DNA of 49,637 nucleotides. Source: Actinomycetes bacterium. GTDB lineage: Bacteria; Actinomycetota; Acidimicrobiia; Spongiisociales; SHLN01. The notes under the pieces are model-generated. The model saw only the letters and a program-made list of their open reading frames with translations, was not told the origin of the DNA and searched no databases. Location: assembly GCA_024638625.1 (NCBI GenBank), contig JAHEJY010000004.1, positions 1 through 49,637 on the forward strand, given 5' to 3'. The position numbers and the translations under genes were made by a program. Shown in pieces: positions 41,120 through 49,050 of this stretch. Position 1 is the stretch's first letter, and every line of letters starts with the position of its first letter.

Positions 41120-42016
41120 TCAATCGGCGGCCGCAGAATTGCGGGACACCACCTGCGAGGTGGGATCCGCCGGAGTTGTCCCGGTATCGTCGGCAAAGGC
41201 GGGACAAATGTCCTGGAACGAGCACCAGTCGCACAAACGGCCCGGTCTCGGGCGGAAGTCGTCGCTCCGCAGCGCCTTGGCGATCGCATCCCAGAGCGCT
41301 CGCACCTGCTTGTCCATCGCATCGAGCTGTTTGTCGTGGATATTGAGTCGATACATCGTCGGGCCGTTGAGATATAACAAACGGACTTCCTTGGGTGTAC
41401 GCCCAAGGCGTTTTCGGATCAGCAGCGCATAGATCTTGAGCGCAAAGAAGGCCGGGAGTGCATACCGCTCCGGCGGAGCCTTGCCAGTCTTGTAGTCCGT
41501 GATGATCAGATCCCCATTCGCATCTTCGTCGATGCGATCCAGAATTCCGCGCACCGCTACTCCCTCGAGTTCCTCGAGCATGTCGTACTCACAGAACATG
41601 GGGTCGATCGATCGTGGATCTTCAAGCGAGAAATAGTTCGCGAGTAGCTCCATACTCTCCAATCCCCACGCTCGCTCATCGTCGAGCGATGCGAACAGGT
41701 CGGGATACTCCTCCATACGAAGCTCTGACCAGGCCTGCCGGAACAGTTCATACAACTGCTCCGGAGATCGATCCGGCGACGGTAGCTGGAAAAGGTTCTC
41801 CAGCGCCAGGTGGGCGGCAGTGCCGCGGGCCTGATACACGGTCGAGGGCTCCGGCAGACGCTCGATGAAGCGGTATTTGAAGAGCTGGGGACATTGCTTG
41901 TAGTCACTCAAGCGGCTGGGAGACACCCGTGGCTCGATGGGCGGCCCACCGGGCGAACCAGAGGGGGTCGGATGAGCGGTGACCGAAGAGGGGGATGGAG
42001 TGGTGAGGGCTGTCAT
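41120..42016 (-). CDS. Stand-alone RecB-family PD-(D/E)XK nuclease with four Cys (probable Fe-S)
   Basis: SPSRL..YKQCP, RGTAAH, GILDRID, ITDYKTGK, LCDWCSFQDICP. Confidence 0.92.
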   Translation of the reverse strand: MTALTTPSPSSVTAHPTPSGSPGGPPIEPRVSPSRLSDYKQCPQLFKYRFIERLPEPSTVYQARGTAAHLALENLFQLPSPDRSPEQLYELFRQAWSELRMEEYPDLFASLDDERAWGLESMELLANYFSLEDPRSIDPMFCEYDMLEELEGVAVRGILDRIDEDANGDLIITDYKTGKAPPERYALPAFFALKIYALLIRKRLGRTPKEVRLLYLNGPTMYRLNIHDKQLDAMDKQVRALWDAIAKALRSDDFRPRPGRLCDWCSFQDICPAFADDTGTTPADPTSQVVSRNSAAAD

Positions 42017-42199: not shown

Positions 42200-42440
42200 C
42201 TGTTGCCTAGGTTCATCTATACGCACTTTACGCCATCAGAGTGACACGTTTGTAATTCTCCCGCAAGAGGCCGTCGGCGCACGCCCGGTACGCTGCCAAA
42301 ACCACCCGTCGTCTCGTTCCCATCTGGTGGGAACATGATGGAAGCGATATGACGCCACATGTGCGAAAAGTGGCTCTAGATTGCCGAAAATCAGACCCGC
42401 GGGCGTGAGAAATGGGATCAAGAACTCGAAACCAGATGAG

Positions 42441-42516
42441 GCGCGAAAACTATGTCTTGTTCGCGAAATCTGTCGAGCGATCTAGCTTGACTCCCCTGGG
42501 CCGACCCTCGTATGTT
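42441..42516 (+). promoter_or_regulatory. Sigma70-type promoter TTGACT-N18-TATGTT with upstream CGCGAAA direct repeats
   Basis: -35 at 42487-42492, -10 at 42511-42516; gCGCGAAA at 42441 and tCGCGAAA at 42461. Confidence 0.7.
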
Positions 42517-42522
42517 CGCAAA

Positions 42523-42832
42523 GCACTCGCATGTGGACCCCACATCGAGTGCCCCGTCGGAGGTGATGGGGCACCGACCCTGGTCGGTCCGCCAATGCCG
42601 CAGACGGAGTGGGCTTCGAACCGGAGGAATCCGGATGAACCTCCCGCCAAGGTTCATGAGAAGCCGGGCGGCGTCGCCATAGCGGCCGGGCAGGTCTCAG
42701 GACCCCGGGCTGATCTGACGACAAGCGCCAACATGAGCGCCGCAAGGCGCCGGCCCGGATGCATCCTCCGAGGGGGTGTCCGGGGGCAAAACCCCGAGAG
42801 GGCGTTCTTCGGAGCGGTCACTCGGGGTTTTT
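42523..42832 (+). ncRNA. Candidate ~310-nt structured non-coding RNA (RNA-S), family unknown
   Basis: Own promoter, continuous hairpins (42523-42552, 42549-42574, 42635-42657, GCAA-capped 42737-42750, 42754-42784) and a U-tailed terminal hairpin; no convincing ORF. Confidence 0.65.
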
Positions 42833-42834
42833 GC
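42786..42834 (+). terminator. Intrinsic terminator-like hairpin with cUUCGg loop
   Basis: AAAACCCCGAG..GTTC-TTCG-GAGC..CTCGGGGTTTTT. Confidence 0.75.
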
Positions 42835-42928
42835 ATGTCTGGACACATGTGCATGCAAGAAAAAGGGGGTTTGGCGGATTTCACGAGAAACGAAGAACGT
42901 GGCAGCATGGTGTCCATGGATTCACGAC

Positions 42929-44737
42929 ATGACATCTGAGACCGAATGCCAGATCGCCATCATCGGTGCCAACCGCGCCGGGATCGGTGTGGCCACCGAC
43001 GCCTACGAGGCCGGTATCGACAAAATCGCCATCTTCAGCAAGGATCCCCTCGAATTTCGACTTCCGAACGCGCCGCAGGGGGACACCACACTGATGGGAA
43101 CGCCCGACGAGTACATCGGGTCGCCCGTTACACGCCTGGTTCAGCACGACGACCACGTTGAGGTTCACACCGATGATCTGGTGGTAAAAGCCCAGGTTGC
43201 CGTCGTCGCCGCCAGGGCCGGACTGGAATCGGCCCCGCCCCCCTACGAGATCCCGGCGGCCGTTGCTGCCCGGGTACATATGTCCATGCCGGACGATATC
43301 GACATGGATGCCGACATACTCATCATCGGAGTCGGCGAGACGGCAGCTGAATACTGTGAAGATCTCGTCGACTCCGGATACACGTCCGTGGTCCTCAGCC
43401 TGCCGTCAACAGCGTTCGATCGCCTGGCTCCGGCAACACGCGATCGGCTGAGAGAGGTCGAGTCCCGCCTTCAGGCAACCGTGCTCTGGCACGCACATCC
43501 AACCGGGGTCATCGACGCCGGCGGCGTTCCGATGGTCACCTTTGACGACCGCCGAACGCCTGACCTGGTGTTCGACCACGTCATCTACTCGCTGGGTCCG
43601 GGCCAGAAGGCGGGCAGGCTGGAGCGACTGGGAATTGACCTGCAAAGCGATGCAGTCGAGAACCCGTCACTGGTCGTGTTGAGCCAGCTCGATGATGATG
43701 ACACCCCGCATGCCGAGCCGGTCATTTACGTCTCGCCCGGTCACGCCTGGAGGCTCATACACGACACGCATTTTCCCGAGCTGGCGCCTGCACACGATCT
43801 CGAGGCGCGACCTCCTCTCCTCCGATATCAGCTCGCCGAACACCTCCGCCGGGACGCTTACAACGCCACCATCACCTCGTTCGACCGCCGGCATGGGGAT
43901 CTCTGGGTTATCCGAGTCAAGCCCGACACCGGTGGGGTAGAGCATTTTCCCGGCCAGTACACGACTCTTGCCCTCGGATATTGGGAACCACGAATCGACG
44001 GCCTGGATGAACACCTCGAAGAGGCCAAGTTCGAGAAACTCGTGCGCCGTTCGTATTCGATCTCGTATCCGATCCTCGAGGATGATCGATTGGTTCGACC
44101 CGAGGAGATCGATGGTCTGGAGTTCTACATCGTTCTCGTCCGGGCCGAAGGAATGGATCATCTGCCGGAACTGACCCCTCGCCTCGCGCTCAAGCGAGAA
44201 GGCGACCGGATTTTCATGGGTACCAAGGTCACCGGGCGCTACACACTCAAACCGGTCACGGATCCCGAGATGGACGTCATCTTGCTGTCGACAGGAACCG
44301 GCGAGGCGCCGCATAACAACATGATCGCCCAGCTCCTCCGTGATGGGCACACCGGCAAGATCATTTCTGCCTGCACGGTTCGCTACAACGAGGACCTCGC
44401 CTATCTCCATACCCACCGTCGCCTGGAAGAGCTGTATTCCAACTACACGTATCTGCCACTTACCACTCGCGAGCCCGAAACCATCAACAACAAGGTCTAC
44501 ATCCAGGACCTGATCACGAAAGGGCTGCTGTCCGAAGCACTCGGCCACGAACCGACTCCCGAACGTTCACAGTTCTTCCTATGCGGCAACCCGCTGATGA
44601 TCGGGCTCCCCGCTGTCGACGGCGACACCGTAGCCTTCCCCGAATCGATTGGCGTGTGTCAGATTCTGGTCGAGCGGGGCTTCACAATCGCTCACCGCGG
44701 CATCGATGGAAACGTTCACTACGAGGAGTACTGGTAA
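42929..44737 (+). CDS. Ferredoxin--NADP+ reductase fused to an N-terminal degenerate pyridine-nucleotide-disulfide oxidoreductase-like domain
   Basis: C-half has PGQY, VRRSYSI, STGTGEAP, LCGNPLMI, HYEEYW; N-half has IAIIGANRAGI and ILIIGVGETAAE Rossmann-like motifs. Confidence 0.85.
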   Translation: MTSETECQIAIIGANRAGIGVATDAYEAGIDKIAIFSKDPLEFRLPNAPQGDTTLMGTPDEYIGSPVTRLVQHDDHVEVHTDDLVVKAQVAVVAARAGLESAPPPYEIPAAVAARVHMSMPDDIDMDADILIIGVGETAAEYCEDLVDSGYTSVVLSLPSTAFDRLAPATRDRLREVESRLQATVLWHAHPTGVIDAGGVPMVTFDDRRTPDLVFDHVIYSLGPGQKAGRLERLGIDLQSDAVENPSLVVLSQLDDDDTPHAEPVIYVSPGHAWRLIHDTHFPELAPAHDLEARPPLLRYQLAEHLRRDAYNATITSFDRRHGDLWVIRVKPDTGGVEHFPGQYTTLALGYWEPRIDGLDEHLEEAKFEKLVRRSYSISYPILEDDRLVRPEEIDGLEFYIVLVRAEGMDHLPELTPRLALKREGDRIFMGTKVTGRYTLKPVTDPEMDVILLSTGTGEAPHNNMIAQLLRDGHTGKIISACTVRYNEDLAYLHTHRRLEELYSNYTYLPLTTREPETINNKVYIQDLITKGLLSEALGHEPTPERSQFFLCGNPLMIGLPAVDGDTVAFPESIGVCQILVERGFTIAHRGIDGNVHYEEYW

Positions 44738-44739
44738 CC

Positions 44740-45102
44740 ATGGATATTCGTCTAAGCCTGGTCGCGCTCGACTGTCCCGATCCTCTGGCACTCGCCGGGT
44801 TCTATCGCGATCTGACCGGCTGGCCCGTCGGTCATGTGAGCGACGACTGGGTCGAACTGGATGCAGGCGACGGCGTGACCATCGCATGCCAAAAAGTAGA
44901 GGACTTCTCACCGCCGGTGTGGCCCGGGTCCCAGCACCCCCAACAGCTCCACCTGGATTTCGATGTTGACGACCTGGATGAGGGCGAAGCCCATGTACTC
45001 AAAGTTGGGGCCATCAAGACTGATGAACAACCCAAGCCTCAATCCTGGCGTGTGTTTTTGGATCCCGCCGGCCACCCCTTCTGTCTCGTCCTAGCCGATT
45101 AG
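44740..45102 (+). CDS. VOC/glyoxalase family protein
   Basis: LDCPDPLALAGFY, QLHLDF, DPAGHPFCL. Confidence 0.92.
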   Translation: MDIRLSLVALDCPDPLALAGFYRDLTGWPVGHVSDDWVELDAGDGVTIACQKVEDFSPPVWPGSQHPQQLHLDFDVDDLDEGEAHVLKVGAIKTDEQPKPQSWRVFLDPAGHPFCLVLAD

Positions 45103-45128
45103 ACGTGTTATTCAAGGCATGTTATTCA

Positions 45129-45207
45129 TGGCATGCGCAGAGTCTTAGAGCCCCTTTGCGTCAAGTGGAGTTGCGCAGCAACTCCCAAGGAACCCGCAGG
45201 GTTCCCG
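45129..45207 (-). repeat. Second, inverted copy of the ~80-bp double-hairpin element at 33350-33430
   Basis: Minus strand CGGGAACCCTGCGGGTTCCTTGGGAGTTGCTGCGCAACTCCACTTGACGCAAAGGGGCTCTAAGACTCTGCGCATGCCA. Confidence 0.9.
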
Positions 45208-45228
45208 CCGCCGACAACCAACACGCGC

Positions 45229-45283
45229 AAAAACCCCGGGCTGACAGTCATCTCCGAAGAGATGTCCGCCCTCTCGGGGTTCT
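45229..45283 (-). terminator. Intrinsic terminator-like hairpin with cUUCGg loop, homologous to 42786-42834
   Basis: Minus strand AACCCCGAGAGGGCGGACATCTC-TTCG-GAGATGACTGTCAGCCCGGGGTTTTT. Confidence 0.75.
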
Positions 45284-45960
45284 TGCCGGCCCTGCCCACT
45301 CCGGTCCCAACGCTTCGCAGTGGTCCGGTCGTTCACCCGAAGGTGAGCGTCCGGTACTCCGAAGAGCCGGCTCCGCAGCTTTCTGCAGCGCCCTGGCTCC
45401 GTCACCGTTCCTGACTCAACAGGCACCGATTGCTGCCGGTCTCTCGACCAGCCACTCCCGGTTCGGCTCGAGTGCCAAACCCAAAGTCACGTATTCTCGT
45501 CGGTCCTTCCCCGAAGGGTCGGGCCGTCTCGAAGTTTGCAACTCCGGTACCGAAGCAACGTCCGTCCACTGCATCCTGGCTGCGTCGTGCAACGTTTCCG
45601 TCGCTACGCGGCCCTTCAACAACAGCCTTCTGAGGCTCCGGTTGCCTGGAATGGTCCCAAGTCTTGCGACCCGCTTCCATGCCGGGCCGGGAACTTCCTC
45701 GGCTATTCCCGCACCTCCCGATTTTTCCCCTTGCGGTTCAAATTCGTTCGGTAAAAGAGGCCCTGGAAGTGCCCTCGCCTTCCAAAGTCCTGCAGATCCC
45801 TCCGAGTCACCCGTTAAGACAAGCTCTTTGGTCCCTGCCTGACCGGTCATCCGTTGTCGCCTTCCGTTTTACCGGCGTGACACGTCACCGAAGTGGCATG
45901 TCACAAAAGCGACGGGACGACCAAAGGTCGGCCGCTGTCCGGGATCACTCCCGATCAGCG
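45229..45960 (-). ncRNA. Candidate ~730-nt large structured non-coding RNA (RNA-L), family unknown
   Basis: Own promoter and terminator; six CTTCGG and several GNRA-capped stems on the minus strand; nested long-range pairings. Confidence 0.75.
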
Positions 45961-45965
45961 TCAGA

Positions 45966-46040
45966 ACAATACGCCGACCTAACCCCCCGGTCAAACGTCA
46001 CGGCTGTTTAGTTTTCGCGCTCTACAACCTTGTTTCGCGA
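45966..46040 (-). promoter_or_regulatory. Sigma70-type promoter TTGACC-N17-TATTGT with upstream CGCGAAA direct repeats
   Basis: -35 at 45994-45989, -10 at 45971-45966; tCGCGAAA starting 46040 and gCGCGAAA starting 46020. Confidence 0.72.
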
Positions 46041-46096
46041 CCGCCCGGAGTGCCTTTTTATCACTCTTTTCGAATGATAGGTCGGCTCGGAAATCC

Positions 46097-46118
46097 TGTC
46101 ATATCGCACGGCTAGCTT
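46097..46118 (+). promoter_or_regulatory. Possible PafBC/RecA-NDp-like promoter (TGTCAT-N10-TAGCTT) of leaderless adnAB
   Basis: Resembles mycobacterial TGTCGG-N10-TA-N3-T; the -10 ends 7 nt before the ATG at 46126. Confidence 0.4.
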
Positions 46119-46125
46119 CACAACC

Positions 46126-49050
46126 ATGGCGACCATAGAAGTGCATCCCGGGCGCTGGGATGATGCGATTGCCGATACCGACGGACCGCAGATCGTTGTA
46201 GGAGGGCCTGGAACGGGCAAGACCGAATTCCTCGTGAGGCGCGCCTCCTACCTGATCGAGCGTGGCACGGATCCATCGGCAATCGCAATACTCGGCTTCT
46301 CGCGGCGAGGGGCGGCTGGAATTCGTGATCGAATCGAGGCAAGGCTCGATGAGACCACCGCAGGCATTTCAGCATCTACGTATCACTCGCTGGCGATGAG
46401 GATCCTCGAATCGCATGGCAACTCGGCAGGCGAACCACCGGCGTTGCTCACTGCGCCTGAGCAAGTTGCGTTCGTCGCTGATCTTCTAGCCGCAGAAGAT
46501 CCTGCGAACTGGCCTGCCGCCTATCGGCCGATTCTGCAATCGTCGAGATTCGCCCAGGAGGTCACCGACTTCTTGCTGCGCTGCGCCGAGCAGAGAATCG
46601 GGCCAACCGAAGTCGCGGCATTCGAACGCGATGACTGGAAAGGGCTTCCCGGCTTCTTCGAGAACTATCTCACAAGCTTGGAAGAGGCCGGACGCCTTGA
46701 CTACGGATCGCTCATCGTCCAGGCGGTTGACCTTCTCGACGATCCGATCGTGGCGGAGGCGCTGTCGGAGCAGTTTCAATACGTGCTGGCGGACGAATAC
46801 CAGGACACATCCCATGTTCAGGCTCGCTTCCTCCAGGCACTGGCACGGCATCACCGGAATCTCACCGCAGCTGCCGACCCCTATCAATCCGTCTACAGCT
46901 TTCGGGGAACGGATCTCGCGAACGTTGCCCGGTTTCCCGAGGAGTTCAGAGACGCCGACGGTCGGCCGGCGCGGCGGATCGTGTTGCCGACCTCATTCCG
47001 CGTGCCGGGCGAAATCCTGCGTGCTGCCGAATCGTTGACGACGAACCTGAACCTGCCGGGGGCAGCAGGTCCCGTCGAAGGGGTCGCGAGCGCGGGCCGC
47101 GTCGACGCCCACCGGTTCGACCAGGCGACCGAGGAAGCCGAGTGGATAGCTCGAGAAATCGAGCGAACCCACGTCGTTGATGGCACCGCGTATCAGGACA
47201 TCGCCGTGTTTGTGAGAACAAAGAAGCGTTTCATGTCCGAGTTGTCCCGAGCGCTCGAGCGCCGGGGCATCCCACACAATCGGCCGGATTCCCGCCTCGT
47301 CGACCATCCCGCCGTCCGGATATTGTTCGATCTCGTCACGGCCGCAACCGCCACGGGTGCGGATCAGGATCGGGCCCTTCGCCGGCTCGCACTGGGACCA
47401 CTTCTCGGACTTCCGCCAGGCGAGTTTTACCGGATTTCCCACGAGCAAGGCACCCGCGGTTGGATCAACGTGCTCGGTGAGCACAGCCCTGGCGGAGCGG
47501 CCATCGCAGGATTGATCTCGAACCCGGCGTGGGCGACGACCATGTCGGCAGCAGAAGGTCTCTGGCACATGTGGGAATCCCTACCCCAGGTCGTTGACGT
47601 CGCCAACGATCCGCAGAGACAGAACGAGCGTTTGGGTTGGTCCTCCATCAGCCAGGTACTGGGTCGCCAGTTCGAACGTGACGAAACCGTGACGCTGCAG
47701 CAATACCTCGGCTGGACAGAGAAAGACGATTTCGAGGCCGACCCTTTGCTTCGTCATCAATCGAGTCGCGTTCCAGAGGTGACCCTGACCTCCCTTCATC
47801 AAGCCAAGGGTCTCGAATTCGATACCGTCTTCATTGCAGATGCCGTCGAGGGAGTGTTCCCCGATTTGAGAGCGCGAGAATCGCTTCTGGGCTCGCGACA
47901 TCTGTCCTCATCGCTGCCTGCCGATGTTGTCCAATACCGCCGGTTCCGACTTCAGGAAGAAGCCCGGCTGGCATACACAGCCATGACCCGCGCTTCCCGG
48001 CGTGTGATCTGGACAGCGACCTCCGCAGGTGACGACTTCCGGCCCGGGGGCCCCAGCCGGTTTCTCGATCGGCTCGGCATCCCGGTTGATCGTCCGCCAG
48101 ACAGGATGCTGCCGGTTTCGGTGCTCGAAGGAGAGGCCTGGTTGCGGAGAATCGCAGCCGACCCCGGGGCGGGGATTGCTGCGAGATCGGCGGCCATCGA
48201 ACATTTGGCCAGTGGCCAGGCATGGGGCGGTCGGGATCCCCTTCGCATTGCCGGAGTTCTGCGTCGTGGCTCGAATAGGGGGATCACTACCCCAGGCAAG
48301 CTTCGCCTCTCTCCCAGCCAGGCCGACAGCTATGCCCGCTGCCCCCGTCAGTACGCCCTGGAAAGGCGTCTGCGATTCTCGGATGGTCCGACGGTACACC
48401 TCGCCTTGGGAAACGTCGTGCATCAGGTGATTCATCAGACCGATGTACATCACCCTGATCCCGTCGTCGAAGATGCGCTGACAACCCTGGATGATCGTTG
48501 GGACCCGGCCGACTTTGGCGGACCGCCCTGGGCTGACGCCTGGTATCTGCGCGCCCGTCATATGCTCGAAAACCTCTACAAACATCGCAACCGGAATCAT
48601 GAGGTGGTTGAGTCCGAGTACGACGTCACGCTGGATGCCGGTGGAGTGCAGTGGAGTGGTTCAGTCGATCGTATCGAACGTCGCGGTTCGCAACTCTGGA
48701 TCGTCGATTTCAAGACGTCGAAAACGCCCGCCCGGGCAGACGAAGCCGCCCGATCGATCCAGCTTGGCTTCTACGTTCTGGCCACGCAACAAGACCCGGG
48801 TTTGTCGGCGTTGGGAGAAATCACGGGAGCCGAGCTCTGGTATCCAGCCGTCCCGCAGAAGAAGCAACCCTTTGCGACCCGCCCGTTCAACATGTCGTTT
48901 CTTCCCCAGGTTCGCCAGACGATGTCTGAGCTTGCAGCCGATGTCGAGGCGGAGCGCTGGGATCCGGTGCCGGGAGAGGCCTGTCGCCACTGCACCGTGC
49001 GATCGTCGTGCCCCGCGGTTCCGGAAGGCCAGGAGGCCTATGCCGGATGA
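46126..49050 (+). CDS. adnA: AdnA-like UvrD-type helicase plus RecB-type nuclease
   Basis: GGPGTGKT, ADEYQD, DPYQSVYSFRG, HQAKGLEF, YTAMTRA; C-terminal VDRI...VDFKT and CRHC...CP. Confidence 0.88.
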   Translation: MATIEVHPGRWDDAIADTDGPQIVVGGPGTGKTEFLVRRASYLIERGTDPSAIAILGFSRRGAAGIRDRIEARLDETTAGISASTYHSLAMRILESHGNSAGEPPALLTAPEQVAFVADLLAAEDPANWPAAYRPILQSSRFAQEVTDFLLRCAEQRIGPTEVAAFERDDWKGLPGFFENYLTSLEEAGRLDYGSLIVQAVDLLDDPIVAEALSEQFQYVLADEYQDTSHVQARFLQALARHHRNLTAAADPYQSVYSFRGTDLANVARFPEEFRDADGRPARRIVLPTSFRVPGEILRAAESLTTNLNLPGAAGPVEGVASAGRVDAHRFDQATEEAEWIAREIERTHVVDGTAYQDIAVFVRTKKRFMSELSRALERRGIPHNRPDSRLVDHPAVRILFDLVTAATATGADQDRALRRLALGPLLGLPPGEFYRISHEQGTRGWINVLGEHSPGGAAIAGLISNPAWATTMSAAEGLWHMWESLPQVVDVANDPQRQNERLGWSSISQVLGRQFERDETVTLQQYLGWTEKDDFEADPLLRHQSSRVPEVTLTSLHQAKGLEFDTVFIADAVEGVFPDLRARESLLGSRHLSSSLPADVVQYRRFRLQEEARLAYTAMTRASRRVIWTATSAGDDFRPGGPSRFLDRLGIPVDRPPDRMLPVSVLEGEAWLRRIAADPGAGIAARSAAIEHLASGQAWGGRDPLRIAGVLRRGSNRGITTPGKLRLSPSQADSYARCPRQYALERRLRFSDGPTVHLALGNVVHQVIHQTDVHHPDPVVEDALTTLDDRWDPADFGGPPWADAWYLRARHMLENLYKHRNRNHEVVESEYDVTLDAGGVQWSGSVDRIERRGSQLWIVDFKTSKTPARADEAARSIQLGFYVLATQQDPGLSALGEITGAELWYPAVPQKKQPFATRPFNMSFLPQVRQTMSELAADVEAERWDPVPGEACRHCTVRSSCPAVPEGQEAYAG

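Follow-up and report, generated by a model that had tools for sequence, protein, structure and literature searches.

Two structured RNA loci with common promoter boxes and a common 3' module in an Acidimicrobiia genome

In several groups of bacteria, paralogous small RNA genes are joined into a regulon by a shared transcription factor box. Examples are the CiaR-dependent csRNAs of streptococci, the Qrr RNAs of vibrios and the RsmX/Y/Z RNAs of pseudomonads. The terminator hairpins of enterobacterial small RNAs are binding sites of Hfq or ProQ/FinO, and Ms1 RNA binds the RNA polymerase core. Marine sediments, sponges and the open ocean harbour abundant Acidimicrobiia, about whose RNA biology, to our knowledge, almost nothing is known. 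Literature searches on Acidimicrobiia RNAs and on CGCGAAA, judged from the listings of papers, returned nothing on the RNA family described here.

The two loci examined here, RNA-S and RNA-L, lie in a window of 49,637 nt, the whole stretch of DNA that was analysed. The window is contig C23 of an Acidimicrobiia genome (G000; 2,805,994 bases in 232 contigs, 86.5% complete). A first-pass annotation had noticed that the two RNAs share a 3' module and a 5' motif, and had attributed the likeness to common ancestry or a shared protein-binding handle. We think it probable that S and L are the small and large paralogues of a stand-alone structured non-coding RNA gene family that is characteristic of a single order-level clade within the Acidimicrobiia, is driven by a promoter box and carries a common 3' handle. 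The family is absent from Rfam 15 and is of a familiar general kind, that of box-controlled paralogous RNA genes. What sets it apart is that the ends are frozen while the size of the body between them varies nine-fold.

Structured non-coding loci and their neighbourhood

RNA-S, the small family member, covers about 313 nt of the forward strand (42522..42834). RNA-L, the large one, covers about 735 nt of the reverse strand (45227..45962). The ends of both are predicted. Both are conserved in three other species of the genus, RNA-S at 71-90% identity and RNA-L at 69-82%, and both fold better than shuffled sequences (z -4.39 for RNA-S and -7.46 for RNA-L). Compensatory changes were detected by RNAalifold in 11/103 predicted pairs of RNA-S and 17/212 predicted pairs of RNA-L, in folds that rest on just four sequences each. 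A coding reading of the loci was rejected because no ORF position is kept in the four species and the indels are not multiples of three.

Known RNA families were searched for with Rfam 15. The whole window gave no match at gathering score, and at E<=10 the region 42200-46200 gave a single chance match, inside the reductase gene. Sixty related loci gave no relevant match, three tRNAs being the only ones returned. A tRNA/tmRNA search of the S and L regions was negative. RNase P RNA, tmRNA and SRP RNA were rejected as identities of S or L because all three are located elsewhere in the same genome.

RNA-S contains a C-rich hairpin loop with CCUCC (42638..42652, forward strand), which is invariant in the four species (columns C242-T254) and forms the loop CCCGCCA in the fold. 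One may speculate that this loop pairs with Shine-Dalgarno sequences. In the small RNAs of the order, a different C-rich loop is conserved.

Contigs from two RNA libraries of two studies lie on 45363-45839, inside RNA-L (records 17 and 19-21). One is identical over 237 nt, and the rest derive from relatives and have high word depth. This material consists of contigs, in which DNA carry-over is possible and from which strand and ends are not readable. No such contig fell on RNA-S, and the genes between S and L received a single stretch of 34 nt, from a record that differs; this reflects cover and counts neither way. L-specific patterns had no match in two metagenome scans, so the covariation set for RNA-L was not enlarged.

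The divergent neighbour of RNA-S is a PD-(D/E)XK nuclease gene (41120..42016, reverse strand; PDDEXK_1 9.7e-38), and the same neighbour stands beside RNA genes in G027, G161 and other loci. The divergent neighbour of RNA-L, identified by domain matches, encodes a UvrD-type helicase with a C-terminal PD-(D/E)XK nuclease (46126..49050, forward strand); in G037 and G161 a gene of this type is likewise found close to the RNA pair. Between S and L are a flavin reductase-like fusion gene and a glyoxalase-like gene (42929..45102, forward strand), which stand outside the RNA family. The fusion protein (42929-44737; 602 aa) resembles a pyridine nucleotide-disulphide oxidoreductase in its N-terminal half and a ferredoxin-NADP reductase in its C-terminal half. 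A 14-nt tandem direct repeat, D4 (45101-45128), directly follows the stop codon of the glyoxalase-like gene. Between that gene and the RNA-L terminator lies a dispersed REP-like repeat (45128-45210) composed of two short GC-rich hairpins and a third unit. It has dozens of copies on >20 contigs, including one at C23:33270-33500, and DNA runs pile up on it to 72-108x as against ~6x in the flanks.

Promoter boxes and spread of the family

A third shared element, beyond the 3' module and the 5' motif, was found by the repeat finder as the perfect repeat pair I7 upstream of both RNAs (42441-42452 and 46009-46020). Two CGCGAAA boxes, 20 nt from start to start, precede RNA-S at 42442..42468 on the forward strand, and these 27 nt are nearly invariant in the four species. 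Two CGCGAAA boxes, almost invariant in the four species, precede RNA-L at 46013..46039 on the reverse strand, 87 nt from the start of the divergent helicase gene. A consensus scan placed a core promoter, TTGACT-18-TATGTT, before RNA-S (42487..42516, forward strand; conserved, 9/12 matches) with a predicted start near 42522. The same scan placed TTGACC-17-TATTGT before RNA-L (45966..45994, reverse strand) with a predicted start near 45961. The promoters of the two RNAs are almost the same. At both loci the two CGCGAAA are 12-15 nt apart and lie ~18 nt upstream of the -35 hexamer.

The source genome has four double boxes compared with ~0.15 expected, the expectation being simple arithmetic from 465 single sites. 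The near-complete genomes G037 and G027 have two exact double boxes each, both at the two RNA promoters. In a ~1 Mb genome the sole exact double box is located ~170 nt upstream of dnaA (L129, G119:C1:69396-69422; Bac_DnaA 1.6e-45). The RNA genes of that genome have one good and one degenerate box, an RNA of ~85 nt and a reduced module at the end.

The third double box of the source genome (G000:C154:8944-8971, reverse strand; L075) is followed by a DnaA-box-like repeat cluster and ~330 nt without an ORF. Genes for a 72-aa HTH_17 protein, ClpS and DUF2017 lie downstream, and the arrangement is conserved in the genus. This box was rejected as a dnaA promoter in the source genome, where dnaA is on C162. 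To name the 72-aa HTH_17 protein as a candidate box-binding factor is pure speculation. The fourth double box (G000:C190:15739-15764, reverse strand) stands ~45 nt before an ATG that has a Shine-Dalgarno-like GGAGG, in a geometry unlike that of the RNA promoters. Sister genera have a second conserved class of double box with conserved blocks downstream (L051, L054, L059, L078, L082, L085, L088, L092). Members of this class are without the -35 TTGAC and without an Rfam match, and 11 downstream ORFs are without a Pfam match; the class may be a further non-coding locus. In five sister-genus genomes (L053, L073, L084, L090, L091) a double box lies ~30 nt upstream of a small hydrophobic ORF (MLEAIVV...).

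The exact module pattern, in which a 13-mer was demanded, was scanned over one genome per species and gave 30 matches in 29 loci. An upstream pair of CGCGAAA, 19-21 nt apart and followed by a -35-like TTGnc, accompanies 23/30 matches (22 loci, six of them from same-genus genomes). The titles of the 22 box-bearing loci read 'Acidimicrobiia bacterium' (14), Acidimicrobiaceae (1), Candidatus Spongiisocius (2) or were other or unspecific (5). The other 7/30 matches lack the CGCGAAA pair, come from unrelated taxa and look like chance hits. The family was also searched for from the promoter side by boxes alone, which is free of module bias. The double box occurred two to five times in 14/14 genomes of the family, and a reversed-pattern control gave 0. 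TTGAC was present at the expected distance in 27/52 box units. A module variant was found by pattern in 22/27 of these TTGAC units, and one of the five misses (L102) was later matched by R1, a covariance model of the module.

R1 matched 72/151 genomes of the class. Matches were obtained in 34/36 other genomes of the same order, in 31/35 genomes of the ~1 Mb-genome family and in 6/79 genomes of the remaining families; these related genomes are not independent samples. The ~1 Mb genomes have a reduced module and weaker scores (36-38 bits). In 29 fetched loci R1 identified 55 top-strand modules, and a double box (<=2 mismatches) lies no more than 1100 nt upstream of 49/55. Both the exact-pattern and the R1 sets lean towards the consensus. 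Boxes and module are used near-exclusively by the RNA family.

Copy number is typically two and sometimes three to six, and ~1 Mb genomes have one to five dispersed copies. A pair usually consists of a small RNA (~110-200 nt) and a large RNA (~350-530 nt), 0.3-1.5 kb apart, and in these other lineages the reductase and glyoxalase-like genes do not lie between them. Sister genera have a short RNA of 240-277 nt and a long RNA of 450-650 nt, and in six of their genomes both genes are on one contig and one strand, 1.2-4.7 kb apart. In two other species of the source genus (G001 and G002) a single contig carries S(+) and L(-), separated by 3.5-4.7 kb. L111 (G019:C69) and L123 (G018:C104) contain three tandem family genes, 280-590 nt apart, two of them near-identical, which suggests that the cassette was recently duplicated in tandem.

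Conserved ends around divergent bodies

The 3' module of RNA-S (42782..42834, forward strand; R1 57.2 bits, E 3e-12) consists of an A-tract, a 7-bp stem, an A.A mismatch, GG/UC pairs, a UUCG-capped inner stem and U5. The module of RNA-L (45227..45289, reverse strand; R1 40.8 bits, E 1e-7) has the same outer stem and a longer inner stem, and ~58/60 of its nucleotides are invariant across the four species. The first-pass annotation had reported that the two 3' ends share stretches of 15/15 and 12/12 identical bases. These are borne out by the sequence and by the repeat finder, which returned them in the window as the inverted repeats I5 (15 nt, 100% complementary, 42790-42804 / 45267-45281) and I8 (12 nt, 100% complementary, 42823-42834 / 45227-45238). 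The cUUCGg cap and the GTCA described for RNA-S are present at 42807-42812 and 42817-42820. Both modules resemble intrinsic terminators in that GC-rich stems of -25 to -28 kcal/mol are directly followed by T5. A simple consensus terminator scan listed neither module, and many family members have only three U in the U-run.

Searching the genome with the 15-mer and a hairpin model, as the annotation had proposed, returned S and L alone in the source genome and more members in relatives. The 15-mer has two copies over both strands of G000, still two at <=1 mismatch and 11 at <=2 mismatches, and the 12-mer has exactly two over both strands. In 2.8 Mb the sites of the two are the 3' ends of RNA-S and RNA-L only. 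R1 scored S at 57 bits and L at 41 bits in a search of the whole genome, in which the remaining matches were one to the opposite strand of S and two with E values of 0.46-0.62. S and L are both in the R1 seed alignment and therefore match by construction; independent support comes from the relatives. A generic terminator of the organism was rejected, because the 15-mer, the 12-mer and R1 give only S and L in 2.8 Mb.

The motif said to be common to the two 5' ends forms a local hairpin in each RNA. In RNA-S (42574..42591, forward strand) this is CGAC/GUCG, with four pairs (74-85 to 77-82) held in 4/4 sequences. In RNA-L (45915..45931, reverse strand) it is CGACC/GGUCG, with five pairs (columns 32-36 with 40-44) held in three or four of four. 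The hairpins thus stand, but the sequence pattern is weak alone because its relaxed form, CCGACC-N1-3-TGGTCG, occurs nine times in G000, namely in S, in L and at seven other places.

The purine-rich internal loop that had been credited to the module as a conserved feature did not survive examination. The stretch is mostly helix, and the mismatch varies among the modules of relatives. The stem is CCCCGAG/CUCGGGG, followed by a single A opposite A/G in RNA-S and then by GGGC-type pairs; RNA-L has three non-standard pairs (A.C, A.G, G.A) at the mismatch site instead. Among the 51/55 modules caught by pattern, the base opposite the conserved A is C in 36, U in 11, A in three and G in one. Therefore the internal loop itself is not conserved. 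Neither the length nor the sequence of the inner hairpin is fixed.

Pairing in the module was examined in 36 distinct sequences. The helix is 91.4% paired, compared with 85.9 +/- 0.6% in shuffles and <=59% when the partners are slid. Three outer pairs of helix 1 show compensatory changes (CG/UA 29:7, AU/GC 27:6, CG/UA 26:3), and 4/14 helix-1 pairs, the central CCCG/CGGG, are invariant in all 36 sequences, as is GGG. The modules of sister genera change yet still pair (UCCCGAG/CUCGGGA and CCCCGG/CCGGGG). The exact 11-mer CCCCGAGAGGG is present in 42/55 R1 modules of the 29 loci. The stronger conservation of the purine strand is explicable because G pairs with both C and U, and the excess can arise neutrally.

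The bodies were compared by BLAST with the short and long RNAs of sister genera, and only the module was matched. Orthology therefore rests on position and a weak hairpin. By their position beside the PD-(D/E)XK nuclease gene and a weak resemblance of a 3' GGAGU hairpin, S is the counterpart of the small class and L that of the large class. In the source genus both RNAs grew, L was inverted and two genes lie between S and L. Compensatory changes were observed in 12/33 pairs of the small class and 26/72 pairs of the large class. In 69 RNA bodies (20.7 kb) CTTCGG occurs 144 times compared with 14.8 expected, and CGCAAG 84 times compared with 7.7 expected; no repeated loop motif stands out besides these tetraloops. 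Together with the folding z-scores and the absence of a kept ORF, this excess speaks for selection at the level of the RNA and for strong constraint on its structure.

Promoter, 5' hairpin and 3' module are common to the family and are kept while the bodies diverge beyond recognition. Common ancestry of RNA-S and RNA-L, one of the two explanations first offered, is strongly supported, with the 3' module, the 5' hairpin and the box promoter as a clade-wide signature. S and L are identical at 15/15 positions because each has kept the consensus of the family; the match marks neither a recent copy nor a recombination site.

Proposed mechanism, rivals and known systems

Each member of the family has the form of a cassette. 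Two CGCGAAA boxes, 20-21 nt apart and with centres ~60 and ~80 nt ahead of the predicted start, precede sigma-A-like -35/-10 elements, the 5' hairpin, the body and the 3' stem-loop. The body is lineage-specific, ~85 to 735 nt long, fast-changing and full of UUCG- and GCAA-capped hairpins. The 3' stem-loop has the consensus RR-CCCCGAG-A-GGGY ... RCUC-N-CUCGGGG and ends in a U-run. A dedicated DNA-binding factor would read the boxes, and S and L would therefore be co-regulated. The module may act as an intrinsic terminator and be retained on the RNA as a ~20-bp 3' terminal helix, a length that would be reached by pairing of the A-tract with the U-run. This helix would stabilise the RNA and serve as a common recognition handle, and the RNAs would act in trans. 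That the module is a shared protein-binding handle, the other explanation first offered, is plausible as judged from sequence comparison. The module sequence is kept far beyond the RNA bodies, and the mismatch at the conserved A is not kept. A search of the source genome, which is 86.5% complete, detected no Hfq, ProQ or CsrA domain.

A serious rival, although we consider it unlikely, is that the module is just an efficient intrinsic terminator, inherited with gene duplication and kept for termination, so that it would have no partner and the identity of S and L would be a by-product. The GC-rich stem, U-run and upstream A-tract are like those of an ordinary terminator, the conserved A faces a changing base (C 36, U 11, A 3, G 1), the inner hairpin is free in length and sequence, and the strand asymmetry is explicable by G.U tolerance. 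Yet the module is not used by ordinary genes of the same genome. Terminator stems usually drift freely provided pairing holds; contrary to this, 4/14 helix-1 pairs are invariant in 36 sequences, and the 11-mer is exact in 42/55 modules across an order while the bodies are unalignable. Two further rivals concern the genes between S and L. RNA-S lies 95 nt upstream of the reductase gene on the same strand and has a terminator at its end, as would a cis-acting leader (riboswitch or attenuator) with the module as expression platform. Such a leader is highly improbable, because RNA-L shares the ends yet is convergent with those genes, the downstream genes elsewhere differ or face away (AMP-binding enzyme, bPH_2/SHOCT protein, M24 peptidase), and the copies of ~1 Mb genomes are dispersed. 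The first-pass annotation had suggested that the modules, as inverted repeats, might allow the fpr-VOC segment to invert. The repeats are inverted and about 2.4 kb apart, but we give inversion of the 2.5 kb reductase/glyoxalase-like segment almost no credence. The arms are just 15 + 12 identical bases, and no recombinase gene is among the neighbours. Both modules are spanned by DNA contigs in the reference orientation (42300-43799 and 45179-46200; records 1 and 8), and no strand-changing joint was found in four runs, examined as contigs in which rare inversions could be hidden. The S(+)/L(-) order recurs on single contigs of G001 and G002, the genes are on the same strand in a sister genus, and modules elsewhere are direct repeats in tandem genes.

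It is also conceivable, though very unlikely, that S, L or both take the place of 6S or Ms1 in this clade, as abundant RNA polymerase-binding RNAs with shared ends for expression and stability. The Rfam 6S model matched 0/151 genomes of the class, including the source genome, whereas RNase P RNA, tmRNA and SRP RNA can each be located in the latter, so no RNA is assigned to the 6S/Ms1 role. Each gene has a predicted promoter and terminator of its own, and RNA-library contigs lie on RNA-L, some of high word depth from relatives. Set against this, the predicted folds are separate hairpins in a string rather than a rod with a central bubble, and sizes of ~85 to 735 nt are unlike either RNA. In the part of the Ms1 study available to us, the conserved neighbourhood of Ms1 is a HAD-IB hydrolase / oxidoreductase (PMC9130861), from which the neighbourhood here differs, and 'Acidimicrobi' has 0 occurrences in its text. 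Membership of the 6S family itself was rejected, on the 0/151 Rfam result and the lack of a rod-like fold. A wider conjecture, which we regard as rather doubtful, is that this near-universal RNA pair of the clade, with a 3' helix bound by one protein and a CGCGAAA-box factor acting also at dnaA or DnaA-box clusters, would be growth- or replication-coupled and would fill the 6S/Ms1 niche.

Our preferred reading, a box-driven family of stand-alone structured RNA genes, concerns an RNA gene family that is near-universal in an order and missing from Rfam. By its simple, recognisable grammar of box promoter and 3' module, every member can be annotated. The family also suggests a putative transcription factor with few targets, among them these RNAs and, for certain lineages, the region of dnaA. 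Ends that stay frozen while the body ranges over ~85-735 nt are unusual and provide a natural experiment on the growth of structured RNAs.

Compared with known systems, RNA-L resembles the large ornate bacterial RNAs OLE, GOLLD, ROOL and raiA in being ~735 nt long, strongly structured (z -7.5) and rich in UUCG and GNRA loops. Unlike these, it has no Rfam similarity even at E 10 and belongs to a family with no large common core, because members range down to ~85 nt. Like 6S and Ms1, the RNAs are stand-alone and probably abundant, in a clade without detectable 6S; unlike them, they have no Rfam match, no rod-like fold and, as far as the available part of the Ms1 study goes, another gene neighbourhood. 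Enterobacterial small RNAs are similar in having a stem-loop and a U-tail at the 3' terminus, which here would also serve for recognition; unlike in their case, the Hfq, ProQ and CsrA domains were not detected in the 86.5%-complete source genome. From the csRNA, Qrr and RsmX/Y/Z regulons the family differs in its ornate RNAs of up to 735 nt, in a box made of two CGCGAAA 20-21 nt apart and in the sequence conservation of its terminator stem; apart from stable tetraloops, its bodies showed no recurring loop motif of the protein-binding kind. Like those regulons, it has several RNA genes per genome, often in tandem, each with its own promoter under the same upstream repeat and its own terminator, and its bodies diverge faster than its control elements.
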